DNA from: a virus
Taxonomy: Duplodnaviria > Heunggongvirae > Uroviricota > Caudoviricetes
Length of the DNA stretch: 32,854 bases
Virus record (IMG/VR): IMGVR_UViG_2703718859_000017
Direction: 5' to 3' (one strand)
Position numbers and translations under genes: made by a program. Positions 425-28,257 of the stretch are shown here, piece by piece. The notes under the pieces were generated by a model that saw only the letters and a list, made by a program, of their open reading frames with translations, had not been told where the DNA came from and ran no database searches. Each line of letters opens with the position of its first letter. Within the stretch, counting starts at the first letter, position 1.

Positions 425-442
425 GGCCCGCATGTCGCGGGC
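425..442 (-). terminator. GC-rich hairpin (6-bp stem GCCCGC/GCGGGC, 5-nt loop) followed by a T-run on the minus strand; candidate intrinsic terminator
   Basis: Read directly: ggcccgcatgtcgcgggc flanked by an A-run on plus, which is a U-run on the minus-strand RNA. Confidence 0.35.
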
Positions 443-908
443 AAATACGTCTGTAATCCAACGGAGAAAGGGTGCCATATCGACCGAACCCGGCAACCGG
501 ATAGCGGGGGCTTTCACCCCCGCTGCGGTTTCTTACTGTTTACACTGCAAGAACGCCGCAAATTCTGACCACATGATGTTAAGCCTGAACTCACACGGTG
601 ACTTGTGTATCATCCAGACAATCATCAAAATAGTTATGCATAAAATGCTCACTATGATCGTTTTTTGCGGCATAGCGCTTGACTCCTTTTACAGGGAGGC
701 GCTAACCTTCCACTTGCGAGGTAGATGGGTTAGGGCCTCGGGTTAAACAAATGTTTGACTCGGGGCCTTTCCACATCCGGCCTTCAGGTAATCCTTCCAG
801 CCGTCAGCCGAAAGGCACCCGCGCGTAATTTACCTTTTACGTCCGTTACGTGCAACGGATGACGTGGCTGTTTTTCCTTCCCCTTCGCCATCCTTTTTCG
901 GAGCAGTT

Positions 909-1129
909 GTGCAAAAGTGTGCAAAAGTGATTTTTGCTGCCACTCCCCGCCAGGCCGCGCCAGTTCTGGCTTTCCTGATTTTTTCGTTTTCGTTGTCGGA
1001 TCCTTTTTCAGATCTTCGATCGTGACGTAATTTTAAAAATCTCTTGTTATTCAGTGCATTAAAATTTTTCGGGATCCTCAGAAAGCCGGAGTTTTTGCAC
1101 ACTTTTGCAAAACCTTGCACAAAGTGCAA
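909..1129. repeat. 17-bp perfect inverted repeat pair (TGCAAAAGTGTGCAAAA at 910-926; reverse complement at 1093-1109), with tandem GTGCAAAAGT x2 at 909-928 and palindrome TTGCAC-AAA-GTGCAA at 1115-1129
   Basis: Read directly from the sequence. Coordinates anchored to ORF-track start 1105 (TTG). No convincing ORF between the repeats. Confidence 0.5.
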
Positions 1130-1244
1130 AACCATTCAGAAGGGAAAACCTCAGTAATGGCGCGCCCTGGCGGGGTGTTTTGCACCCCTTTCGATTTGCA
1201 AAATTTATCGTACACAAATACCGGAGGCGTGTGCGGGGTAGCGC

Positions 1245-1412
1245 CGATTACGTCACTTTACGCGTTACGTCGCCGCCGAAAATTTCCGGCCATTTGCGGC
1301 GATTTTGGGGCGCAGAAATCGTTTTCTGATGTCAGGGGATCGAATCGGGCTGGCGGGGTTATCTCTTCGTTACGTGGCGTTACGCGACGTTTTACGTGGG
1401 GATTACGTGGGG
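1245..1412. repeat. Cluster of TTACGYG / ACGTAA motifs, including four direct copies at about 11-bp spacing in 1369-1412; iteron-like array
   Basis: Read directly: cgttacgtggcg, ttacgcgacg, tttacgtgggg, attacgtggggcg. Further copies near 1247-1270, 1020-1030 and 825-850. Confidence 0.45.
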
Positions 1413-1498
1413 CGTTTCGTCCATCTTTTTTTCTGCTGCGGACGGTTTTTTCGTGGTGAGTGATGTCCGGTGATGAATATTTTTTATTATCGGGGGGA

Positions 1499-1523
1499 TA
1501 AAAAAGGCCACATTGCGCGGCCT
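1499..1523 (-). terminator. Candidate intrinsic terminator just downstream of the last tail-operon gene (AGGCC stem, 9-nt loop, then T6 on minus strand)
   Basis: Reverse complement reads aggccgcgcaatgtggcc followed by ttttttat, directly after the stop at 1538-1540. Confidence 0.4.
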
Positions 1524-1537
1524 GTTAAAATGAATAA

Positions 1538-3211
1538 CTATTCGATTATTGGCGAATATTTATTTTTTAGCTGGCGGCACTCCTGAGCGACCTGGCTGAA
1601 CTGTGCGGCCTGCGGAGACGTGCCCGTTTTTGGGTGGGTATGTGATGCTGTAATATCTGCCAGCTCTTCCACCACATCGGCAAGGTCCGTCAGCATGGTC
1701 AGTACATTAATGCCCTCGTTTCCCAGCTTCACCGTATCGCCAACCAGCTTCTGCGCCAGCGCAATACTGTGACGGACGCCCTTAATCTTTTCGGTAAGGC
1801 TGCCGCCCACGGTGTCCAGGGTGTCGCCTTCCACGTCGCGCTCACAGGTACCGGCAACCACCATCATGTGTCCGCCCGTGCTGATGCTGTAGCTCTCTTC
1901 AGTGATATGGGTGACCGCGCCAGCCTGAAGCGTGGATACGCCCAGGACGGTGGTTGTGTCGGTTGCCTGTATGGTGGTCTCCCGGCTGGTCAGGCTCCGC
2001 GTTTCCTCGTCTGCGCTCACCACGCGCTCGCGTGATGTCTCCTGTATCCGCTGGTCTGTCTGGCGCTCCCAGTCTCCGGCGACCGTCACGCGCTGCGATA
2101 CGCCGTCGCGCTGTTGCTGCAACTGCTCGCCCGGCTTCACGTCGGGCAGATTGTGGCCCTCTGCCATTATCTGGCGGATGAAGGGCTTATCCGCCCGGCC
2201 TTCCACAAATCCCACTTCCACCAGGGTTCCGGGCGGCGGGAACTGGAACATGCCGGACTCACTGCCCGCCATGGGAACGGGGAGGGGAACGGCGTTATAA
2301 ACGGGCGTATCCGCTGCCGGGTTGCCGTTCTCGTCAAGCAGCTGGAGATTCACCGCGTAGCGGGGTCTGAACGGGTCGGCAATATTGCCCGCGCTGACGG
2401 CTTCGGTCGGCGCCTCAACACGTGCCAGTTTGGGCAGGTGAAGCCCTGATGCCAGTTCAGGGAAGGCCTTTTCAGCCTGGCGACGGAAAGGGGACTTCTG
2501 GAGGGGAGCGCCGGTGGCTTTATTGCGCGGTGTCCACGTGATGGTCATGTTGTCATCTTCCAGCATGACCATCGTCAGGCGCTGACCGTTCACCTCCACA
2601 CCCGGTCGCAGCGTCTGAATCATCGGGAGGGTCATACTGTGCCCGCCCGTTGATGCCTGGCTGAACTCGTGCGGGATGGTGACGGGGCGACCGGAAAACA
2701 TCCCCTGCGCGGCAGCAGCGGCCATAATGCCGCCGTCCGGTAACGGATGCCAGATGTAATCCGGTACGGAGAAAATACGCCCCAGACTGGCCAGCAGTTC
2801 GTAGCCCGTGCCGCTGTGTGTGAAATGCGGAACGGGTCTGTCAGTGTAAGCCGCGTTGTCCGGCAGGATGATTTCCAGCCCGCTGGTCTCACTCAGCCAC
2901 TGTGTGACCGTGCGCATTGTCGGGTGCTGAAATGAACAGGGGAAGGGGTGATCAAGGATCCCCGCCATTTCACGAATCAGAAGCCGCACCGAGCCGTTTT
3001 CAGCGGGCTGGCTGCGTTCAACGTATCCGGTAAACCAGCGCACCAGGTCGTTTCCGTATCCGATATCGAGACGAACGGGGCGCCCGGTGTAGTTCTGCTC
3101 TGTTCTGGCCGTGATAAATCCGCGTCCGCACGCGTTCAGCTCAAGCATGACGGAACAACTGACCAGCTGAATGGTGTCGTTACCCAGTAACAGACGTTTA
3201 GTGGGGTTCAT
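1538..3211 (-). CDS. Tail-operon distal protein (557 aa); possible baseplate hub/spike-like component, function not established
   Basis: ORF track. Last gene of the tail operon before the terminator. C-terminal half has repetitive beta-rich character; no hub or spike gene is otherwise recognisable in the tail module. Identity is inference. Confidence 0.3.
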   Translation of the reverse strand: MNPTKRLLLGNDTIQLVSCSVMLELNACGRGFITARTEQNYTGRPVRLDIGYGNDLVRWFTGYVERSQPAENGSVRLLIREMAGILDHPFPCSFQHPTMRTVTQWLSETSGLEIILPDNAAYTDRPVPHFTHSGTGYELLASLGRIFSVPDYIWHPLPDGGIMAAAAAQGMFSGRPVTIPHEFSQASTGGHSMTLPMIQTLRPGVEVNGQRLTMVMLEDDNMTITWTPRNKATGAPLQKSPFRRQAEKAFPELASGLHLPKLARVEAPTEAVSAGNIADPFRPRYAVNLQLLDENGNPAADTPVYNAVPLPVPMAGSESGMFQFPPPGTLVEVGFVEGRADKPFIRQIMAEGHNLPDVKPGEQLQQQRDGVSQRVTVAGDWERQTDQRIQETSRERVVSADEETRSLTSRETTIQATDTTTVLGVSTLQAGAVTHITEESYSISTGGHMMVVAGTCERDVEGDTLDTVGGSLTEKIKGVRHSIALAQKLVGDTVKLGNEGINVLTMLTDLADVVEELADITASHTHPKTGTSPQAAQFSQVAQECRQLKNKYSPIIE

Positions 3212-5061: not shown

Positions 5062-7121
5062 TATGCAAGCCTCACGATGTAGTTAAATGCGATGTTTTTG
5101 ACGGTGTTTTCCGCATTACCGGTGGGGTTAATGGTCAGGCCGTGGCCATGTTGACCCAGTGCGAGCGTGTGGATGTGTTCGCCAATGCTTACCGAATGTG
5201 TGTGTTCCGAAACTCTGGCGATCAGGTTCGCCCCGGAGCCCGGCCCGTATGCGGTCCAGTCACTGCTGCCTTCCGGTGACGCGGTGGCGGTTCTTAATGA
5301 TATTGTTGCGCTGAACGGCCCCGCGCTGTTTGTTGTTTTTGTGCCGTAATTGAAGGATGAGGTCGTTTTTGTGCCAAGGTCAGTATTTGAGACGCTCCCT
5401 CCGTGGGTGTGCGATTTGATGCCGTCCTGCTCCTGTGACAATACCGCACGACCGCTGGCAGGTTTTCCCTTGATTGTCCAGCCACGCATATCCGGGATAC
5501 GACCATCCGGATAGGCTTTTGCCAGCAGGGGATATCGTGCTTTATCGAATGTCTGCCCCACCATGATGGCGTAACCGGCAGGTGGGGTGTCTGACGGCCA
5601 CGGCAGGGGAACGCCTGCGGGTAACAACTCACTTGCAGGCAGTGCGCCGATGTCCTGTGGTGTGGGTTTGTTTTTGTCCGTGTAAGTGCGGTACCAGATG
5701 GTGCTTTTCCCTTTATTTAAAACAACCCCGGTGAACTGTGTGCGGAGGTACATGTCGGCAGGGTTTGGGCTTTCGAGACCTGTCGTGATCCTGATGATCC
5801 CCCCGTTGATGTCGCCTGATACTTCGATAAGGCAGCCTCCAAGGCAGATATCACCATAGCCCGTATCAGTGAGCACGCTGTGCCGGGAAAGTGAAATATT
5901 GGCTTTGAATATCCAGAGTCCTGGTCTGAAGGCGCCACGTTCATTCAGCCATTCCACGAATTGTTCTGTTGTCCAGCGTTGCCCTGCTTCACCCACGTAC
6001 CCGTCTTTTGCATAAACGCGTGGTGCGCCCACGTTGATCAGGAACAGCTCCTTGTTGGGGATGTCCTCACCATTGCGGTTTTTCGCAAGCCGACCATCGG
6101 CGTTGTCCATGGCGATCTTTATAGCCTTTGGCGTGGCTGCCTGTGTCTCTGATGTACTGGTGGTGGCGCTGCTTAACTGTGTGAAGCCCTTTTCTTTCAG
6201 CGTTGCGTCCGGGTGGTTGCGTGATTTCTCGTGTTTTTTCAGAGCGTCCAGCCAGCGGCGTTCTTCCGGCGTTCCTCTGGGGCGCAGGTCAGTCACGTTG
6301 CCGTCTTCATCAATGTCAGCAAGGGCAAAAAAATATTGCCGGGCGGCCTCCTTCCTGTGTGCTTCCAGCAGGATCTCTTCCGTGGCGGCGGGGTCGGCCA
6401 TGATAATATCGTGCTCCACCGTCCATTCACTGGTGAGCGTACCGGTCCACCATACTGTCAGCCAGATACGGGACGGGAAGTCTGGCGTGGTCAGCGGTAT
6501 GTCTTCGGTCAGCTCTGCGCGTAATCCCTCCACGTAACCGGTCCCTTTGCAGAGTGACCATCTTTCGCCTTTTTTAACCAGCCAGCCGTCCCCAAAGAAT
6601 GCAGCGTTACCGTAAATATCGATGTTTTCCCGGCGCTGGCGCTCGTCCATGGCCGCCAGGCGTGCCGTGAAGTCTATCTGCCAGGTCTGCGCCGGGGTGG
6701 TGATACCTGTGGCTTCCTTCGCACCGCTGTACTCCATGAGCATGGAACGGACCAGCACATTACCTTCGTTACCGTTGTGGGTTCTGATTTTTTTCTGTGT
6801 GGGGGCGTGAACAATCATGGCCAGCGTGCTGGTTGCTTTGCTGACCAGTCCCACCCAGTTAAATTCAAAATCACCCAGCTCTGCCCCCAGGGTGACCGAA
6901 TAAACCACGGCATTCTCATTCACCACGCCGGTTTTGCCAACGGCCTGGCGGTGAACAATCTGATCTTCAGGTGGCAGGGTTTCGTCGGGGGATACCGGTG
7001 TTTCCGGGTTGAGGTCCGGGACGTTTGCAAAAACAAACTCATCCAGCACAACGGGGGTGCCTTCCGCCGCCTGCTGTGCCTTGAGCCGGATAAAGGCGCT
7101 GGTAATTACAGATTTCGCCAT
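5061..7121 (-). CDS. H: Tail fiber protein (P2 gpH-like)
   Basis: 686 aa. Contains [34 protein letters not shown], closely matching the remembered conserved P2 gpH region. His-rich HxH C-terminal segment ([25 protein letters not shown]). Confidence 0.8.
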
Positions 7122-9197: not shown

Positions 9198-11380
9198 CCC
9201 GCGTAAAGCTCCGTCCATTCATCCAGTTGCCCCGGCGTCATCGGGTTCTGCGTGTTGATTGTCAGATTGCCGAACGTCCGGCTGTTGTCGATACGGGTTG
9301 AGGTGTCCGTGCGTATCTGGTTGCGTATGCCTCCGGGTGGCAGCTCTGCGCTGATGCGGTTGCCTGCCAGTGCCGGGACGGCGGTTTCTGCAATCTGCGG
9401 AGGTACGGTGCTGCCTGTTGCGCCCCGCGTCATGGTGTTCACCTGCTCCGTGGGCTTCATGTCGATACTGATACCGGGGATTTTGTTCAGCTTTTCCGCA
9501 AGCCAGTTCCACGTCCGGTTAAACGAGTTTTTAATGACGTTCCATAAGTCCCCGAAGACGTTACCGATGATCCCCGCCATTTTCCGGAAGGATTCGACCG
9601 GGGCGGTCGGGTCAAATGCAGCCACCACGTCCTGCCACCCTCTGATGACGATGGCGAAGATGTCGATCAGGGTTCTGATCACGCTGATAACCACCTCCAG
9701 CGCGGGGGATATCAGGCTTACCGCTGCGGCCACCACGCGACCGCATGTTTCCCCGGCACGGGTGACGCTGTTCATCTGTCCCGTGGTCAGCTGTACCGGT
9801 GCAAACAGATCGGAGAAGGCACTGAACAGTGTTTTTATGCCCTGCCATACCGGGGCCAGCGCCCGGGCAATGTCACCGAACGCGGCAGTCACCGGGCTCA
9901 TGGCGTCCAGTGCGCTGGTAAAACCATCAATAAAGCCGCGAATAAAGGCTTTGATGGGCTGCCAGAACTTAATGGCCACCACCACCAGAGCAGCGATGGC
10001 GGCGGCAACCAGGAGGACCGGGGCGCTCATGGTCAGAAACGACACGCCCGCCAGACGCGCGGCAAGACTGGTGGCAATGATGGCACTGCGTACTTTTGTG
10101 AGTGCAAGCGTGTACAGACTCCAGGCTGCCCTGGCGCCCTTTATGATGGCCTTATGGCCTTCCATGATGAAGCTGAACACACCCAGCACGATGTTCGTGA
10201 CCGCACCGGCTGCGCCCAGCGCCAGCATGGTCAGCGTGATGTAACCCAGCCAGCGGGCGATGTTCGGGAACATGTTCAGCCAGCGCACGAACGTCGCGCC
10301 GATATCGGCAAAACGGCCAGCCAGTGGTGCGAGAATGGGGTAGAGGGCGTTACCGATGGCGGCCCGGATGTTGTAGAAGGAGGCCACAAGGCGGTCCCAC
10401 GGGTCGGTCATGGCTTCCGCCATTTCCGTGGCACGCTTCATGCCGTCATTACGCCCCAGCGCTGATATGCTCCGGTTAAGCATTTCCTGCTGTCCCCAGA
10501 GTTTTTTAATCACGTCCGCGCCACTGCCGAAGGCGTCATCCAGCGCCTGTTGTGCCGCCACGTTACCCTCAATGTTCCTGCCGAACCTCGCCTGCAGACG
10601 GTCGAGGATGTCACCCATGGGTAAAATCTTCCCGGTGGCATCGACAAAACTCATCCCCATTTTTTGTGCGGCAGCGGGGGCACTGCGCAGGAATTCCTCA
10701 TAGATGCCCGATGCCTCGGTGCCCATGGTCCGTGACAGGGTGCCCAGTATGGCAAACTGCTCTGCCATGCTGACGCCAAAATCCGCGCCCGCGTTTTTGG
10801 TGCCCTCAATAAGCTCCTGCATGGTGCTCATTTCCACACCGAACTGCTGAACCATCCACGCGGTTTTACCTGCCAGATCTTCAGCAAACCCCACGGCACC
10901 CATGGCAGAAAACTCACTGCGGAAACGGGCACCCATGGCGGCAAGGTAGCCGCTCGCCTCTTCGCTGCTGACGCGGGTAGCCACGGCCAGGGTGCTGGTT
11001 GCTGCCGTCACACGGGGTAAATCCCCGTCGCTCAGTCCGTCCAGTGCGCCGCGAATATGCCATGCGGAACGGATGATCTCCGTGGAAGACTGACCGAATG
11101 CGGTCCCCAGTTTCATGGCCTGCGTGGTGAGGGCGGTCAGCGCCTGCGCCCCGACGCCTTTGGCCTCAAGCTCGCCCAGCGCCTTCTGCATCTCCCACGC
11201 CGGATCCATCGCGGCGCGGATACCTTCGGCCACGCCCCACAGTCCGGCCACACCCACACCGATACGCGCGAACGCGCCCTGCGAGCGTTCGGCGAATCCC
11301 GTCACGGATTCCTGAACCTGCCGCAGCGGGCGGGTAAGCTGGTCTGTCAGATTGATAATGAAATCCAGCTGGCTGGCCAT
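9194..11380 (-). CDS. T: Tail tape measure protein
   Basis: 728 aa with long hydrophobic internal segments. Immediately downstream of the E/E' chaperone pair; ATG sits right after the E' stop. Confidence 0.8.
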   Translation of the reverse strand: MASQLDFIINLTDQLTRPLRQVQESVTGFAERSQGAFARIGVGVAGLWGVAEGIRAAMDPAWEMQKALGELEAKGVGAQALTALTTQAMKLGTAFGQSSTEIIRSAWHIRGALDGLSDGDLPRVTAATSTLAVATRVSSEEASGYLAAMGARFRSEFSAMGAVGFAEDLAGKTAWMVQQFGVEMSTMQELIEGTKNAGADFGVSMAEQFAILGTLSRTMGTEASGIYEEFLRSAPAAAQKMGMSFVDATGKILPMGDILDRLQARFGRNIEGNVAAQQALDDAFGSGADVIKKLWGQQEMLNRSISALGRNDGMKRATEMAEAMTDPWDRLVASFYNIRAAIGNALYPILAPLAGRFADIGATFVRWLNMFPNIARWLGYITLTMLALGAAGAVTNIVLGVFSFIMEGHKAIIKGARAAWSLYTLALTKVRSAIIATSLAARLAGVSFLTMSAPVLLVAAAIAALVVVAIKFWQPIKAFIRGFIDGFTSALDAMSPVTAAFGDIARALAPVWQGIKTLFSAFSDLFAPVQLTTGQMNSVTRAGETCGRVVAAAVSLISPALEVVISVIRTLIDIFAIVIRGWQDVVAAFDPTAPVESFRKMAGIIGNVFGDLWNVIKNSFNRTWNWLAEKLNKIPGISIDMKPTEQVNTMTRGATGSTVPPQIAETAVPALAGNRISAELPPGGIRNQIRTDTSTRIDNSRTFGNLTINTQNPMTPGQLDEWTELYAG

Positions 11381-19980: not shown

Positions 19981-20020
19981 CGGCTGTCTTCGGATAACGC
20001 GGGATAACCGAACACAGCCG
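19981..20020. promoter_or_regulatory. 40-bp imperfect dyad-symmetry element (16/20 matching half-site positions) in the divergent O/P late promoter region
   Basis: Read directly: cggctgtcttcggataacgc | gggataaccgaacacagccg. Lies 27 bp upstream of the P start. Contains TGT...ACA ends. Confidence 0.35.
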
Positions 20021-20046: not shown

Positions 20047-21873
20047 ATGCGCCGCCATAATGGGCGCATGGCTAAATATTCTGACGAAATCAAAGAGGCG
20101 GCGCGATCGCTTTACCTGAAGCGGTGGCACCCCCGCGATATTGCGGCGGAACTCGGTATTCCGCCGCGCACGGTTTACCACTGGTGTGATGTGGGGCAGT
20201 GGGCTGCCCTGCTGCCCGCTGAATCCGTTGAGGACGTGATCGCCCGGCGTATTGATGTTCTGACCGGACGGGAGGGCAAGACAGAGTGTGAACTTGCCGA
20301 ACTGCGTGAACTTATCGCGCAGCACGTGAAGATCATCGCCCAGAAAAACAAACATGCTGAAAGGATGGCGGAAATTGCCGCCCTGCGTCCGGCAGGGTAT
20401 GAGGACGGCGCGGCTGCGGGGACCTGCGGCGGGGGAGAAGGGAAAAAGCGGCGCTACCGGAAAAACGACGTTTCCGGACTGACTGCTGAAATGCTGGATG
20501 AATGGGCGCGTAAAAATCTTTATGCCTACCAGCTGCACTGCCGCGAGAACCGGCACCGTGAGCGCCGTTTCATCCTCAAGAGCCGCCAGATCGGCATGAC
20601 CTGGTATTTTGCATGGGAGGCGTTCGAAGATGCGGTGGTGACTGGTGATAACCAGATTTTCTTTTCTGCGTCACGGGTACAGGCGGAAATCTTTCGTGAA
20701 TATATTATTAACTTCGCCCTGCAGTTCGGGATCACGCTCACGGGTAAGCATATCCGTCTGAGCAATGGTGCAATGCTGCGTTTCCTGTCCACCAATGCCA
20801 GTACCGCCCAGGGATTTAACGGCCACCTTTACGGCGATGAGGTGTTCTGGATCCCAAAATTCACGCGACTGCATGAAGTGGCCTCGGCAATGGCGACCCA
20901 CGACAAATACCGCACGACGTATTTTTCCACACCCAGCGCCAAAACCCACCAGGCTTATCTGGTCTGGAATGGTGACGACTGGCGCGGGGATGATCCGGCG
21001 CGTCGTGCTGTTGAGTTTCCGAAAGAAAGCGCGATGCGTGTGGGCTGTGAATGCCCTGACGGGATCTGGCGCTACATTATCCGGCTGGAAGAGGCGGTGG
21101 CGGGTGGCCTGTCTGCACGGGTTGATATTGAACGTATCAGGAACCGCTACAACCCGACCACTTACGCGATGCTGTACGGCTGCGAGTTTGTTGACAGCAA
21201 GGATGCGGTATTTAAGTTCTCCGAACTGGTCAGGTGTGAGGTGGAGATGGAGACGTGGGGTGACTACGATCCCACGGCGGCACGTCCGTTCGGCAATCGT
21301 GAGGTGTGGGCGGGCTTTGACCCGTCAAGGTCCGGGGATAATTCCACGTTTGTGATTGTGGCCCCGCCTGTCCATGAGGGCGAGCGGTTCCGTGTGCTCG
21401 CTGTCTGGCAGTGGCAGGGATTTAACTTCACCTGGCAGGCCGATCAGATCCGCGAACTGATGCAGCGCTTTAACATTACCTATATCGGCATAGATATCAC
21501 CGGTATCGGGAAAGGGGTGTTTGATATCGTCAGTCGCTTTGCGCCACGTGAGGCTAACGCCATTCTTTACAGCGTGGAGAGCAAAAACCGCCTGGTGATG
21601 AAAATGATAGACGTGGTGGCCCATAAGCGTATCGAGTGGGCGAAAGACGCCATTGATGAGGCCAGCCGTGAACGCACGGAGATCCCCGCGTCGTTCATGT
21701 CCATACGCCGCACCACCACAAAAAGCGGTAACGCGCTGACGTTCGTGGCGGAACGGTCGGATGTTACGGGGCATGCGGATGTGTTTTTTGCCATTTCGCA
21801 CGCCGTGATTAATGAGCCTGTAGATTATGACTATGAACGCCCGTCCACATGGGCCTTCGGGAAAGCCGCATGA
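20047..21873 (+). CDS. P: Terminase large (ATPase) subunit, P2 gpP-like
   Basis: 608 aa ORF divergent from O and followed by the portal gene with an ATGA overlap. Alternative start at 20068. Confidence 0.85.
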   Translation: MRRHNGRMAKYSDEIKEAARSLYLKRWHPRDIAAELGIPPRTVYHWCDVGQWAALLPAESVEDVIARRIDVLTGREGKTECELAELRELIAQHVKIIAQKNKHAERMAEIAALRPAGYEDGAAAGTCGGGEGKKRRYRKNDVSGLTAEMLDEWARKNLYAYQLHCRENRHRERRFILKSRQIGMTWYFAWEAFEDAVVTGDNQIFFSASRVQAEIFREYIINFALQFGITLTGKHIRLSNGAMLRFLSTNASTAQGFNGHLYGDEVFWIPKFTRLHEVASAMATHDKYRTTYFSTPSAKTHQAYLVWNGDDWRGDDPARRAVEFPKESAMRVGCECPDGIWRYIIRLEEAVAGGLSARVDIERIRNRYNPTTYAMLYGCEFVDSKDAVFKFSELVRCEVEMETWGDYDPTAARPFGNREVWAGFDPSRSGDNSTFVIVAPPVHEGERFRVLAVWQWQGFNFTWQADQIRELMQRFNITYIGIDITGIGKGVFDIVSRFAPREANAILYSVESKNRLVMKMIDVVAHKRIEWAKDAIDEASRERTEIPASFMSIRRTTTKSGNALTFVAERSDVTGHADVFFAISHAVINEPVDYDYERPSTWAFGKAA

Positions 21874-22922
21874 GCAAGAAACGCAGAAACAAAACGTCAC
21901 GCGTGACGAAAAAAGCATTCACGCCCGCACGTGGCAGCACAATCACGTTTGGTCAGCCTGAACCGGTGCTGACCACCGGCACGGACTACCATAACATCTG
22001 GTATGACAACGAACACAACCACTGGCAGCTGCCGATTAACCGCCTGGCACTGGCGCAGCTCCCGAACCTTAACGCCCAGCACGGTGGGGTGCTGTATGCC
22101 CGCCGTAACATGGTGGCGGGGGGCTATACCGGTGGTGGCCTCACAACGGACCAGATGGAACAGGCGGTATTTGACTACCTGTTGTTCGGCGATCTCGCCC
22201 TGCTCAAGGTGCGTAACGTATTCGGCGACGTCGTGGCACTTGAGCCGCTTCCGTCGCTGTATCTCCGGCGCCGCAAAACCGGTGAGTTCGTGGTGCTTCA
22301 GGAAGGTCCCGCGCTGGTCTATACGCCGGAAGATATTATCTTTCTGCGGATGTATGATCCGCGTCAGCAAATTTACGGGCTGCCGGATTATATCGGTGGC
22401 ATTCACTCGGCGCTGCTGAACAGCGAGGCCAGCCTTTTTCGTCGCCGTTACTACAACAACGGGGCGCATATGGGGTTTTTGCTGTATACGAACGACCCGG
22501 GGATCACCACGGAGATGGAGGATGAGATCCGCGAGAAGGTGGCGGAGTCTAAGGGGCTGGGAAATTTCCGCAATCTGTACATCAACATCCCCAAAGGTTC
22601 GCCGGATGGAGTGAAAATTATTCCGATTGGTGAGGTGAGCGCCAAGGATGAATTTTCAAACATCAAGGGGATCAGCGCCCAGGATGTGTTTACGGCACAC
22701 CGCTTTCCTGCCGGTCTTGCGGGGATCATCCCCACGAACGGAGCCACCATCCCTAACCCGGAAACGACGCGTGAAACGTACCGCAAGGATGAGGTGATAC
22801 CGCTTCAGCGTAAAATCATGAACGCCGTGAACAGCGATCCCGATATACCGGAACACCTTTATCTTTGTTTTGATGTGGAAGCCGGGCATGTGGCGGAAGA
22901 AAAAGCGGTACCGGTCGGGTAA
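21870..22922 (+). CDS. Q: Portal protein, P2 gpQ-like
   Basis: ORF track 21849..22922. ATG at 21870 overlaps the terminase stop. About 350 aa, matching P2 gpQ. Confidence 0.8.
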   Translation: MSKKRRNKTSRVTKKAFTPARGSTITFGQPEPVLTTGTDYHNIWYDNEHNHWQLPINRLALAQLPNLNAQHGGVLYARRNMVAGGYTGGGLTTDQMEQAVFDYLLFGDLALLKVRNVFGDVVALEPLPSLYLRRRKTGEFVVLQEGPALVYTPEDIIFLRMYDPRQQIYGLPDYIGGIHSALLNSEASLFRRRYYNNGAHMGFLLYTNDPGITTEMEDEIREKVAESKGLGNFRNLYINIPKGSPDGVKIIPIGEVSAKDEFSNIKGISAQDVFTAHRFPAGLAGIIPTNGATIPNPETTRETYRKDEVIPLQRKIMNAVNSDPDIPEHLYLCFDVEAGHVAEEKAVPVG

Positions 22923-22959
22923 AATGTCCTCCCCTGGGTACGTGTTATCGGGAGGTAAG

Positions 22960-23223
22960 ATGCGGATTTTTAAAGCCCGGTGTCCTGACTGTGGCGCACC
23001 TGCTGTCATCCGGAAGACAGACTGGAAAACCCCTGAACTTGCGGATCTGTACTGTGCATGCAGTGATGTCGAATGCGGGCATACCTTCGTCTGTACGATG
23101 ACCTTTTCCCATACCCTCAGCCCCGGCGCCCGCTCCGGTCGCAATATGGTGAAGTTTCTTGTTGATGCCATGCGCCCGGAAGATCGCCGGTATGCACTTG
23201 AACTTCTGTCGCGGCGTTCCTGA
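22960..23223 (+). CDS. ogr: Ogr/Delta-family zinc-finger late transcription activator
   Basis: 87 aa from ATG 22960 (GGAGG SD at 22951-22955). Cys pattern C-X2-C-X22-C-X4-C (CPDC ... CSDVEC) matches the Ogr zinc finger. Confidence 0.75.
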   Translation: MRIFKARCPDCGAPAVIRKTDWKTPELADLYCACSDVECGHTFVCTMTFSHTLSPGARSGRNMVKFLVDAMRPEDRRYALELLSRRS

Positions 23224-23250
23224 CGCGCTTCGCTTGTCTGCTGCTTCGCC

Positions 23251-23273
23251 GGGGCAAAAAGAATTTTTGCCCC
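23251..23273. terminator. Perfect 10-bp stem hairpin GGGGCAAAAA-GAA-TTTTTGCCCC between convergent ogr and accessory ORF; candidate bidirectional terminator
   Basis: Read directly in the 62-bp gap between the ogr stop (23223) and the minus-strand ORF stop (23286). Confidence 0.4.
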
Positions 23274-23285
23274 GACTCACCAGCT

Positions 23286-23849
23286 TCATGAAAAATCTGG
23301 TACTGAATACAGAGGCGTAACCTGAAATCCGTTACACTTCCAGGACTGCGCTATATCTGGTGACTGCGTGATGGCGGGTAACGGGATTCTGTCATTCCAG
23401 GTCACCCATGCCTTTGGCTCAGAGGTCAGAATCATTAACGCAATGCGGTAACTTTGTAGCCTGGCCTCATCATCCTCTGAAAGCCCGAACGGGATATCTG
23501 ATTTTACCTCATCCATCTGTTCGATTTTCTTCCCTAAAAATACCGCGAGGAAGTTTCTGCTCTCCTGGCATAAGGCCATTTCCGGTATTGTGTACAGTGA
23601 TTCAACATGTCGGCCTGCACGGTTCCAGGCTTTCACAGCGACATCGTGTCGTGTAATGTCGAAAGAAAGACTTTCTTTGCCCGGAGTGGGTGATCTCCAT
23701 GCTACCGCCTTTGCGGTAAGTGCCTCCAGTGTAATACGGTGTACGCATAAGCGCATGAGGGTGTCATCGTCAGAAATCTCCTGTGTGTTCATTTTTTCAA
23801 GCTGCTCAATTTCATGGAGGTTATATTTTTTTAGTTGTCTTCTTTTCAT
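23286..23849 (-). CDS. Hypothetical accessory protein (187 aa), AT-rich
   Basis: ORF track 23286..23903. Preferred ATG at 23849 with an AAGGAAA SD. No recognisable motif. Lower GC than neighbouring phage core. Confidence 0.4.
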   Translation of the reverse strand: MKRRQLKKYNLHEIEQLEKMNTQEISDDDTLMRLCVHRITLEALTAKAVAWRSPTPGKESLSFDITRHDVAVKAWNRAGRHVESLYTIPEMALCQESRNFLAVFLGKKIEQMDEVKSDIPFGLSEDDEARLQSYRIALMILTSEPKAWVTWNDRIPLPAITQSPDIAQSWKCNGFQVTPLYSVPDFS

Positions 23850-23865
23850 ATGTTTTTCCTTTCGG

Positions 23866-24030
23866 TCACGAGAGTAACCAGATAACTGCAACGGTTGCCG
23901 CATAAATTCTGGCGATAAAGCCTGCTGTGAAGTGGCGAAACGGGTTTTCCCACGTCAGGAATGCCATTAAAGCAATCCATGCAATGGTAAAAATCAGTGC
24001 GCCCTTAACGGCGATAAACAGTTCGTTCAT
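23866..24030 (-). CDS. Small hydrophobic protein (54 aa, two predicted TM helices)
   Basis: Manual translation MNELFIAVKGALIFTIAWIALMAFLTWENPFRHFTAGFIARIYAATVAVIWLLS; AAGGAGA SD 7 nt upstream. Below the ORF-track size cut-off. Confidence 0.4.
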   Translation of the reverse strand: MNELFIAVKGALIFTIAWIALMAFLTWENPFRHFTAGFIARIYAATVAVIWLLS

Positions 24031-24712: not shown

Positions 24713-27228
24713 TGTGGCGCCTCCGTATTCGGTGCGGGAGTGATATCAATGCGGCGGGTGCTGTCATTCCAGTACGCGGTGCGCCCGTCAGCCAGGCGCA
24801 CGCGGGCACCGTGACGGACGGAAACGACGGCGCTTTCATGCAGCTGCACGCCCAGCGCATCAAGCTCACGGGTGATTTGTGCGGTGATGTGTGGCTCAGC
24901 GGTCAGTGCGACACTCACGCGAACGCCGCCAGCGGGCGCACTGATGCCGCCGTTTTTCACGGTTTCCGTGTCAGGTGGCGGGTTTTTCAGCTGCCTGGTG
25001 AGTTGTTTTCGCTCTGTGGGGGTCAGTGACCTTAACCATTCACCCAAATCACCTTCCGGCAGGGTAAGTCGCTGCTCCCTGCGTCCGTCCGGCTGCCTTT
25101 CTGGCGGGTCGTTTATGGTCAGATTCTGGTCAGGGGGACAGTTATTGCCACGAGTCCAAGGTGCGGCAAAGCCGCACTCAACGTCAAAACCCTCGTCCGT
25201 GCGGTCTTCGTTTTCCGGCTTGCGTCTGACCAGTTTCCAGGTGTCCGGGTGGGTGCATATGGTGTAGCGCTCCCCGAGTGACGGGGCGCGGACGCCGTAA
25301 ATGCGTTGCGGGAATTCGCCGTAGTCGTTGGCCTCTTCGGCAGTTTCGTATGCGGTGCGGACCAGGTACGTGTTGCGGGGAATGAGCACACCACCCTGGC
25401 GGGTGATATAGGTGGCAAAACATCCCACGTCGGCGGCGGCCAGTATGGCGTCAATGTCGTCATGGTCCAGACGCTGCGGGGCAGTCGGGTTACGGGCCAT
25501 CTGCCCGGCAAGGCGGCGGAGTTCGCGCCATACCTGGCGGGGCGGGATACCGAAGAACTGGAACTGGCGGATGCGGTGAAGGGCCGCCCAGCCGATGGCG
25601 TTCTCCACGGTTTCGGCCATGGTTTTGCCTGATTCCTTATCGACGTAAGGTTTGCCGGTTTTCGGGTCATTCCCCATGAAGGCGCTGGCGTCCAGGTTCT
25701 TACCGATATAGGTCGCGATATAGCTTGCCGGTGTGCCTTTTGCCGGGTCGATTTTTTCGCATTTAAAACGCGGGGAGATATCATCACCCAGCTCTGCGCG
25801 GTCCTCCCTGATGGCGGCGTTGCGCATGATTTCAGTGATACGGGCTTCGTTTTCCGGGCTGGTGAATACCAGCATGTGCCAGTGCGGTGTACCGTCGTGG
25901 TGGGGCTCTACTGTGCGCACGCCGTACCAGCCCAGCCCGGCCTTGTTGATGGCCTTGCGGACGGCGGCGAAAAAGCGGTAAACCAGATAATCACTGGCAT
26001 CACGTACCGTTGCCCCGCAGTATTTCGGGTTCAGACTGCCGTCATCGTTCACGCTGTGAAAACGGGAAGGGGCTGTGACGGTGACGAAAAACGCCACGTC
26101 GCCGCGTGCTTCGGCGACCTGCTCCATCCCCCGGACGCAGGCCATCATCTCGTTACGGCGGTTACGCGGATTAGAGAGACCTGCCCAGTAGATATCCTCA
26201 AGGCTGAACCGTTCTCCTTCTTCGTTCTCGATGTCCCAGGCCTTCAGAAAATCGCGGGTGCGCTGGCGTTTTTCGCGCCAGTCCAGTAACGCTTCATGGC
26301 TGATATATATCGATGTCTTACGTGACACCAGACCTGCGGCGCGTAACAGCTCTTCACGCCAGATGTCCCGGAGGTGTCTTAACTGACTGTTCCACCATGT
26401 CGCACAGGAAAGGCGCATGACCGCACCCGGCACCTGTTCCGGGTCGGGGGCGGTGCGGCGGTCGGGCCTGATTTCCAGCGACGGCCAGCAGGGTGGCGTG
26501 ATACCCAGTTTTAACGCCATGTGTGCCAGTGGCTGGTAGGTCAGTAACCAGGTGAACAGGTCATCGTCACCCCTGCCGGTCTTTTCGATGACCTCATCAC
26601 ATGCGCGCTCCAGTGCGGTGGAAAACGCGGTGGCGGTCAGGGTGGCAAGGCGCTGGATTTCGTCACGGCTCAGCTGCGGCAGCATAAGCAGTTCATCCAG
26701 CCGTTCGCGTGCGGCGGTGGCCTTAAAGGCCGGGGTGGCAAAGCGTTCATTCACACGGGCGATACGTTTCAGGCGGGCACGCAGCCCGTGACGAACGAAG
26801 TTATCCGCCGCGTATGCGCTGTTGTTCTTAAGCCCTTCCCGGCGTGCGCTCTCCTGTTTGCGGCTCAGGCGTGCCAGGTCACGGATGAGCGGACCGGCAA
26901 GAAACGGCGGAAGGGCGCGCAGCTCTGCCATGGCTTCAGATACCAGTGTTGGCGGATTCTCGTGTTTGTGCCGCGCCAGTTTTTCCAGCCTGATCCGACG
27001 CTCTTCGTCGTGGTGAAGATGCGAATTAATTCGCTTGCCTTCGTCTGTGTTTGTCAGGAAGTCGACGGTCTCTTCATCCAGTCTTGCATCAATGCGAATG
27101 TCTTCGTTGATGTAGCTCTGAATGGCCTGGCGTAATGCGGTTGGTTGCGCTCTGCCGAACGTTTCAGGATCGATAACCGGTAGCGGGGCGTTCCACGGGT
27201 ACGCCAGCTGTGCATTGTGGTCACTCAT
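24709..27228 (-). CDS. A: Rolling-circle replication initiator (P2 gpA-like HUH endonuclease)
   Basis: ORF track 24709..27237 begins GTG; ATG at 27228 overlaps the upstream ORF stop (ATGA). Contains TPHWHMLVF (HUH motif) and YIATYIGK (active-site tyrosines). About 840 aa. Confidence 0.85.
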   Translation of the reverse strand: MSDHNAQLAYPWNAPLPVIDPETFGRAQPTALRQAIQSYINEDIRIDARLDEETVDFLTNTDEGKRINSHLHHDEERRIRLEKLARHKHENPPTLVSEAMAELRALPPFLAGPLIRDLARLSRKQESARREGLKNNSAYAADNFVRHGLRARLKRIARVNERFATPAFKATAARERLDELLMLPQLSRDEIQRLATLTATAFSTALERACDEVIEKTGRGDDDLFTWLLTYQPLAHMALKLGITPPCWPSLEIRPDRRTAPDPEQVPGAVMRLSCATWWNSQLRHLRDIWREELLRAAGLVSRKTSIYISHEALLDWREKRQRTRDFLKAWDIENEEGERFSLEDIYWAGLSNPRNRRNEMMACVRGMEQVAEARGDVAFFVTVTAPSRFHSVNDDGSLNPKYCGATVRDASDYLVYRFFAAVRKAINKAGLGWYGVRTVEPHHDGTPHWHMLVFTSPENEARITEIMRNAAIREDRAELGDDISPRFKCEKIDPAKGTPASYIATYIGKNLDASAFMGNDPKTGKPYVDKESGKTMAETVENAIGWAALHRIRQFQFFGIPPRQVWRELRRLAGQMARNPTAPQRLDHDDIDAILAAADVGCFATYITRQGGVLIPRNTYLVRTAYETAEEANDYGEFPQRIYGVRAPSLGERYTICTHPDTWKLVRRKPENEDRTDEGFDVECGFAAPWTRGNNCPPDQNLTINDPPERQPDGRREQRLTLPEGDLGEWLRSLTPTERKQLTRQLKNPPPDTETVKNGGISAPAGGVRVSVALTAEPHITAQITRELDALGVQLHESAVVSVRHGARVRLADGRTAYWNDSTRRIDITPAPNTEAPQ

Positions 27229-27937: not shown

Positions 27938-28257
27938 GGTGTTTGGCCTCTTGTAGTAAGTTCTGAAAACTCACCAACCCGAGGTTCCAAGCTCAGGGTG
28001 GCGAGACGTACAGGGTTGGAACTACCGGCTACAAGAGATCCCGGCCCGACCGAAGTCGGCCCCGTACGCCCCGCCATAATTCTGACGCGAAAAAGACGTG
28101 GCGATACAGTACGCACAAAAAAACCGCTGGCGCGGTTGTGCGCTCTTGTAGTCGGCGGGGTTCCAATCCCGGCACCCGTTTTATGAGGTGCGGGAAAACT
28201 GTAACCCGACCAGGCGAACGCTGGCAAGCGGTTTTTTTGTGTGTGCATGATGATCAC
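27938..28257. other. Structured GC-rich intergenic element with nested inverted and direct repeats (CTCTTGTAG at 27948-27956 and 28143-28151, reverse complement at 28029-28037; GGTTCCAA at 27983-27990 and 28159-28166, reverse complement at 28016-28022); candidate cis-regulatory RNA or ncRNA
   Basis: Read directly from the sequence. The only track ORF here (27628..28257, 209 aa) is low-complexity and judged spurious. Confidence 0.4.
28117..28137 (-). terminator. Intrinsic terminator on the minus strand inside the structured element (stem AACCGC/GCGGTT, loop GCCA, then U-run)
   Basis: Minus strand reads aaccgcgccagcggtt followed by ttttt, about 120 nt downstream of the ORF183 stop. Confidence 0.45.

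Follow-up and report, generated by a model that had tools for sequence, protein, structure and literature searches.

A portal-adjacent Ogr-family gene, a conserved boundary hairpin and a predicted HP1-type cos site in a mosaic P2-family prophage

In phage P2, the gene for the activator Ogr follows tail gene D and adjoins attP and int as the distal gene of a late transcript (its terminator is common with that of the late F operon), and the packaging site cos lies beside the portal gene Q. A different map is described for HP1 and HP2, in which cos adjoins attP and is not downstream of the portal gene (PMC2771037, Lavigne 2009), and an ogr homologue adjacent to the portal gene is already in print for phage K139 and for the Salinivibrio prophage Smhb1 (PMC8537503). 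Here, we analysed 32,854 nucleotides of a Caudoviricetes genome (IMG/VR record IMGVR_UViG_2703718859_000017; "the window" below is this whole stretch at its full length) and focused on positions 22923-23285, which hold a small zinc-finger gene directly after the portal gene and a stable hairpin, and where an earlier note, reasoning from the P2 map, had suggested a possible cos region. Our best explanation, to which we assign a probability of about 0.65 as a whole, is that the prophage is a mosaic in which ogr beside the portal gene is the norm of its late-gene lineage, that the hairpin would be an element of the operon boundary, and that the phage's own cos lies at 1223-1246, at the other end of the late genes.

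The zinc-finger gene (22960-23223, plus strand) is, by its sequence, a member of the Ogr family. It is on the same strand as the portal gene, whose stop at 22922 precedes it by 37 nt, starts with an ATG at 22960 behind a GGGAGG Shine-Dalgarno sequence (22950-22955), and ends with a TGA at 23221-23223. The 87-amino-acid product carries its cysteines as C8-X2-C11-X22-C34-X4-C39 and matches Pfam PF04606 Ogr_Delta over all 47/47 profile positions (57.4 bits, E 1.3e-15, against a curated cut-off of 26.3 bits) as well as PHROG 603 'transcriptional regulator' (E 6e-30), so that finger spacing, size (the Ogr/Delta range is ~70-90 amino acids) and profile score agree on membership. P2 Ogr, 186 B and P4 Delta belong to the same Pfam family and share the C-X2-C-X22-C-X4-C finger and a presumed activation of late operons; for the gene studied here, too, a role as late-gene activator is presumed. 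Activators of this family act on late transcription by contacting the alpha subunit of RNA polymerase. Its upstream neighbours are the gpQ-like portal gene (21849-22922, plus strand; PF04860, E 3e-14), with which the structural genes of the rightward late P-Q operon end, and, before it, the gene for the large terminase (20047-21873, plus strand). Escherichia coli 2013C-3033 (NZ_CP027323) harbours a near-identical prophage, located between serS and dmsA, in which the copy already bears the PGAP label 'ogr/Delta-like zinc finger family protein'. The identification made in the earlier note, an Ogr-family zinc-finger gene right after Q on the same strand, is thus borne out by Pfam, PHROG and finger spacing, and its account of the P2 map, with ogr at attP/int and cos beside Q, was correct. 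The note had also named a second ogr-like gene at the distal end of the tail operon as a finding that would count against its reading; none is present in the window, whose six reading frames hold no other C-X2-C-X22-C-X4-C finger, and the flank searched in the E. coli 2013C-3033 prophage has none either.

The position of the gene differs from that in P2, as the earlier note had remarked, but is not unusual within its own lineage. Large terminase, portal and ogr follow one another on one strand in 95/96 loci recovered with the Ogr protein, the synteny check that the note had proposed, and the next gene is usually a replication gene on the opposite strand. The sole exception, in Serratia quinivorans (NZ_JBIEIU010000013), has an Ogr homologue of 55% identity followed by a gpA-like gene, with no terminase or portal gene within 3 kb upstream; it may represent another gene order or a satellite-like element. 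Among described phages, the post-portal 'transcriptional regulators' of SW5 and ev239 are Ogr_Delta proteins (E about 2e-17), and K139 has a zinc-finger regulator, orf13, at the post-portal place, for which the K139 record predicts a separate promoter, P13. HP1 (NC_001697) carries an unannotated open reading frame (ORF) of Ogr_Delta type directly after the portal gene (~10447-10650, minus strand), whose N-terminal CxxC lies in another frame than the remainder, so that the ORF is a pseudogene or the record contains a frameshift. K139 orf13 and its Smhb1 counterpart resemble the gene studied here in being small, of Ogr/Delta type and placed on the same strand between portal and replication gene, within a late-gene order of HP1 type; K139 differs in that an extra small ORF (orf14) separates portal from orf13 and that its ogr homologue overlaps a canonical rho-independent terminator, T12, on the opposite strand, rather than the conserved module described below. 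P88 (NC_026014), in contrast, has its ogr after gpD, the P2-type place, as an unannotated gene at ~34475-34720 on the plus strand (Ogr_Delta, E 4e-14) whose product is only 34% identical to the window's Ogr. As far as these comparisons reach, ogr beside the portal gene is the rule of the HP1/K139/SI7 branch, a feature that is real but ordinary and already known, and it is to be expected here because the late block is HP1/K139/SI7-like and not P2-like.

Protein identities to SW5, HP1 and P88 identify the window as a mosaic P2-family (Peduoviridae) prophage with a late half of HP1/K139/SI7 type and a P88-like early half running from int to gpA. The closest published phages over the stretch are Salmonella SW5, SW3 and SI7 (Irrigatiovirus), Escherichia ev239 (Evevirus) and Cronobacter ESSI-2. 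The late proteins are 48-86% identical to those of SW5 (TerL 76%, portal 76%, small terminase 68%) and 27-58% identical to those of HP1, with which they are collinear (TerL 47%, portal 52%), while TerL, portal and small terminase reach 36%, 31% and 29% identity to P88. For the early half, identities to P88 are 80% for int, 87% for Cox, 70% for C and 53% for gpA. The right-hand joint between the two halves falls at a conserved 66-nt module that contains the hairpin.

If the late half follows the HP1 map, cos would be expected beyond the tail genes, and the phage's own packaging site is most likely an HP1-type cos core at 1223-1246 (minus strand, CGGCGCTACCCCGCACACGCCTCC; the 7 nt equivalent to CTACACC in relatives lie at 1235-1241), beyond the last tail gene and ~22 kb from the hairpin. 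The prediction draws on the HP1 map, a conserved core, the ends of relatives' virion records and flanking TGCA repeats. Regarding the map, the core lies ~300 nt from the end of an orf35-like gene (1538-3211) on the attP side, as in HP1, K139 and SW5; the HP1 record places cosL at 1-9 and attP at 251-694, and in the linear K139 and SW5 records both termini fall between the last tail gene and int. Regarding the core itself, the sequence CGGCGCTACACCGCACCCGCCTGC is identical in 34/80 tail-end loci despite divergent flanks, and the window's variant occurs in 5 more. The record ends agree with this: the junction formed by the two ends of the SW5 record matches window 1093-1254 (E 2e-13), a homology seen only with short words (blastn of window 880-1540 against phages at word size 11 gave no match), and the SW5 record ends with ...CTACACCGC (...CGGCGCTACACCGC) and starts with GCACCCGCC. 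The 'complete genome' records of SI7 (MK972712) and SW3 (MK972714) run through the core minus exactly the 7 nt CTACACC, which are present in SW5 and in all prophage copies and are probably a cohesive end lost in assembly. Further, in the ev239 record the phage sequence gives way to a Nextera adapter at the base aligned with the SW5 start, and the end of the K139 record carries sequence homologous to the core. Finally, a cluster of TTTTGCA/TGCAAAA repeats, the second-ranked inverted repeat of the window, flanks the candidate at 1092-1203, with a second cluster at 907-926; the same TTTTGCAAA repeats flank the left end of SW5, and in the window TGCA repeats are found only beside the core.

The candidate thus resembles HP1 cos and the core of SI7, SW5, ev239 and K139 in its place after the last tail gene, in its sequence and in its TTTTGCA-type flanking repeats. 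It differs by three substitutions in the core and by its distance from the prophage end, which is >1.2 kb of cargo, including a hok-like region, against ~250 nt between cos and attP in HP1. This hok-like region, at window 432-746 on the prophage-end side of the predicted cos, is similar to the hok/gef region of P88, and the relative in E. coli 2013C-3033 has three Hok/Gef family genes there, so that cargo is also found between cos and att. As for the ev239 RefSeq record (NC_049392), its end consists of a Nextera adapter, an index and a poly-A run, and its first ~118 nt look like a fold-back chimera beside the cos core.

The contrary proposal of the earlier note, cos within 22923-23285, is not supported: the architecture is of HP1 type, the virion records of relatives end at the tail-end core, and virion ends mapping elsewhere, which the note itself had named as decisive against it, are what those relatives display. 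The proposal carries the P2 map over to an HP1-type architecture. The place of the module, between the portal gene and replication-side accessory genes, does fit that of P2 cos, although this yardstick comes from the P2 architecture, which this late region does not share. The note's remark that no P2 cos-like motif could be recognised by eye was confirmed, as the 19-nt cohesive end of P2 (GGCGAGGCGGGGAAAGCAC, within a 55-bp core) has no match in the window with up to 3 mismatches, and the best local similarity is 12/19 at 23264-23282 on the minus strand. Searches with the cohesive ends of P2, 186 and phiRSA1 (the last taken from PMC5694545) gave no match at <=3 mismatches either, and the looser 12-mer matches were not specific to this region. 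That the phage's own terminase cuts in or next to the hairpin is still arguable from a P2-like 12-mer, GGTGAGTCGGGG, at 23270-23281 (minus strand), from the coincidence of the interval with P2 cos and from the variable cargo that flanks it left and right, as is also described for P2-family cos sites (PMC5694545), yet we judge it very unlikely. Terminase and portal are of HP1/SI7 type, a type with cos adjoining attP; relatives with a 76%-identical terminase have no module, and their virion records end at the tail-end core; comparable GC-rich 12-mers are found at other places in the window (4 vs 1.05 expected), one of them beside the 1223-1246 candidate; and no TGCA-type repeats flank the module.

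One contig of the window's own lineage (IMGVR_UViG_3300018478_000024, 16.7 kb) might have been taken as direct evidence for a cut at the hairpin, since it ends beside an adapter at 23247, directly before the hairpin. We rejected this end as a virion terminus, as it fails its control: the same TruSeq adapter caps the other end of the contig, at window position 6612 within a tail-fibre gene, so in that data set adapters mark the ends of library fragments, not of genomes. No adapter junctions were found besides those of this contig, and 0/76 metagenome contigs ended in the module.

The hairpin itself, CGGGGCAAAAA-GAA-TTTTTGCCCCG at 23250-23274, has an 11-bp stem and a GAA loop, folds at -17 kcal/mol (z = -4.0) and fills most of the 62-nt gap between the end of ogr and a convergent cargo ORF that ends at 23286. 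Together with imperfect outer arms (23240-23260 and 23264-23284; 21 nt, 81% complementary) it forms the longest short-range inverted repeat of the window. It is part of the 66-nt module (23220-23285), which lies between the convergent ogr and cargo ORFs and consists of CTGAC, a 23-nt block (GCGCTTCGCTTGTCTGCTGCTTC, 23225-23247, plus strand), the hairpin and ACTCACCAGCT. Exact copies of the 23-nt block occur in >120 IMG/VR contigs and a 22-nt version without the first G (CGCTTCGCTTGTCTGCTGCTTC) in 76 metagenome contigs, and the module is found in 1151/5426 complete E. coli genomes (about 21%). Its closest counterpart is the stretch immediately downstream of the portal stop in P88-like phages (Xuanwuvirus, Gemsvirus), which has the same borders and is 92-94% identical over 66-68 nt between unrelated flanks. 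There the element follows the portal stop, whereas in the window it follows ogr; the two versions differ by one compensated stem pair (CAAAAA/TTTTTG in the window vs CATAAA/TTTATG in P88-like phages, an A-T for a T-A pair), and a TGCACAA region that neighbours the P88 copy is missing from the window. Both borders are sharp, with at least 5 different contexts on the left (two portal types, an inserted 174-amino-acid ORF and two ogr genes) and at least 6 different cargo contexts on the right. No satellites with the module but without portal or terminase genes were found, a portal gene being upstream in every context inspected. The impression of the earlier note that the hairpin is conserved was right. 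Our literature search found nothing on the module sequence or on a P88 cos, and a sub-threshold Rfam match to gyrA-RNA (25 bits vs a gathering score of 45) was taken as chance. In some copies, namely two that follow ogr (L005 and L006) and two P88-like contigs, the right arm has been converted to give a palindrome with 21-bp arms (GCTGCTTCGCCGGGGCA...TGCCCCGGCGAAGCAGC), a conversion that arose independently in both lineages.

Among the readings of this module, we rank first that it is most likely an operon-boundary, terminator-like element. It would lie at the meeting point of the late P-Q-ogr transcript and a leftward early and cargo transcript, act there by termination or as an RNA 3'-end hairpin, and also mark the recombination joint between the mosaic halves. 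The case rests on position and structure: nearly all relatives have a canonical intrinsic terminator (GC stem and T-run) at this spot, where P2 has tQ, and the gap holds no structured element besides the hairpin, which is stable as an intrinsic terminator requires and kept by a compensatory change. Like tQ and the relatives' post-ogr terminators, it comes immediately behind the final gene of the terminase-portal operon and faces convergent genes; unlike them, it has A/T runs inside the stem instead of a GC stem followed by a T-run, and is preceded by a conserved 23-nt leader.

Several observations weigh against the overall explanation. A U-tract is absent on either strand (ACTCACC follows the stem on plus, GCGAAGC on minus), and a consensus terminator scan did not call the hairpin, so that termination here is suggested by position only. 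A terminator would also leave two features without explanation, the invariant 23-nt block upstream of the hairpin and the island of 94% identity between unrelated flanks. In P88-like phages, moreover, the module is found in the interval that holds cos in P2, and GGTGAGTCGGGG agrees in 11/12 bases, and in P2 orientation, with the 5' half of the P2-family cohesive end. At the other end of the late genes, the predicted core departs from the clade consensus at 3/24 positions (21/24 kept).

The identity island between unrelated flanks, exactly at mosaic joints, might be nothing more than a short shared stretch at which exchanges happen, a linker or scar with no function in this phage, and the outer arms made into a perfect palindrome in some copies suggest repeated recombination or repair. 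Such a linker seems quite improbable, given that the sequence is near-invariant over thousands of copies, that the stem change was kept compensated and that the module is the only possible stop signal between the convergent operons.

The P2-like features of the module raise a second possibility, namely that it is the cos of P88-like phages, brought in with the P88-like early region as a second, foreign site on which the phage's own terminase would not act but from which a co-resident P88-like phage could package. In P88, the entire post-portal gap, the place equivalent to P2 cos, is taken up by the module; it combines the P2-like 12-mer with sharp borders and cargo on both sides; its left border is the precise point at which an HP1-like late region meets a P88-like early one in two independent mosaics, the window lineage and L207; and about 21% of complete E. 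coli genomes contain P88-like prophages. Another candidate for the P88 site lies ~350 nt away, though, at P88 10885-11005, where conserved TGCACAA repeats and a GGATCC palindrome are found with a GC-rich core, built like the flanks of SI7-type cos. This region and the SI7-type cos flank have one motif of 18 nt in common (TCAWAAAAATTKTGCAAA, z = 4.5), and the P2 cos flank has TGCAT-type repeats (as seen by eye only). The only linear virion-derived P88-like record (P884B11) breaks at the TGCACAA region, with no gap or overlap, and none of the virion-derived P88-like records ends at the module or has a deletion or duplication there. Copy numbers do not discriminate, since module and TGCACAA region co-occur in near-equal numbers; the window and L207 both lack the TGCACAA region and keep the module. 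On balance, we consider it unlikely that the module is a P88-like cos, and quite unlikely that a full-size temperate phage that packages itself from an HP1-type cos has kept it as an additional packaging signal of foreign origin. If it were so, the prophage could be mobilised both by its own terminase and by P88-like prophages, which about a fifth of E. coli genomes carry. Even as a P88 cos, the module would be foreign and not the site expected for this phage's HP1-type terminase.

The gene arrangement also suggests how ogr may be expressed. A -10-like hexamer, TAAAAT, overlaps the portal stop codon (22920-22925, plus strand), and the ogr ATG is preceded, at a distance of 36-41 nt, by a hexamer of the form [G/C/T]TAAA[A/C]T in essentially all of ~60 dereplicated related loci while the flanks diverge. 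Because it is conserved at a fixed distance from the ATG, TAAAAT is probably the -10 of a weak ogr-specific promoter, although a strict sigma-70 scan called no ogr promoter. No terminator was found between portal and ogr, so late transcription from the terminase promoter should read into ogr. For the site at which Ogr might act, we propose as a candidate the dyad TTCGGATAACGCGGGATAACCGAA at 19989-20012, in the region of divergent late promoters between the scaffold and terminase genes; dyads of TTCGGATA-N-TATCCGAA type stand at the equivalent place in ev239, K139, HP1 and SW5, and just 2 TCGG-N12-17-CCGA sites occur in the whole window. The box of P2 late promoters (TGT-N12-ACA, centred near -55) is, in contrast, absent from the scaffold/terminase intergenic region, which holds 0/7 of the window's sites, their number being that expected by chance; this absence concerns site specificity, not the family membership of the Ogr protein. 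In the resulting model, the weak promoter would supply the first Ogr, Ogr would activate the divergent late promoters between scaffold and terminase genes, potentially through the dyad at 19989-20012, and the P-Q transcript would read through into ogr and close a positive feedback loop, resembling P2, where the late F operon reads through into ogr.

To the right of the module lies a variable slot. In the window, it is occupied by the convergent cargo ORF (23286-23903, minus strand; 188-205 amino acids), for which we found no Pfam or PADLOC match and only weak PHROG matches; close relatives have a MarR-family gene (E. coli 2013C-3033) and other genes or nothing (IMG/VR relatives) in the same slot. 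Further into the early region, two Rfam families scored above their gathering thresholds, C4 antisense RNA at 27994-28081 (83 bits) and the Hfq-binding isrK RNA at 28117-28191 (69 bits), both on the minus strand and within or just upstream of an Ash-like ORF. Separately, a segment inside gpA (window 25136-25176) is very strongly conserved in relatives (GTACAGTTATTGACAGAACTCCAAGGGGCGGCGTTGCCGCC) and has diverged in the window; two independent contigs (L011 and L085) end <=8 nt apart in it, and the segment may resemble the P2 ori nick sequence.

Together, these comparisons indicate that the P2 map is not transferable to every P2-family prophage. In the HP1/K139/SI7 branch, ogr stands beside the portal gene and cos adjoins attP, at the far end of the tail genes, so annotators seeking cos beside the portal gene in such prophages would look in the wrong place. 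Two by-products emerge. One is a cos site predicted precisely, as a conserved 24-nt core, in a widespread enterobacterial prophage group; 7 nt of this core are missing from two virion assemblies. The other is a discrete 66-nt element at the boundary of late and early genes, which recurs at mosaic joints of two Peduoviridae lineages.

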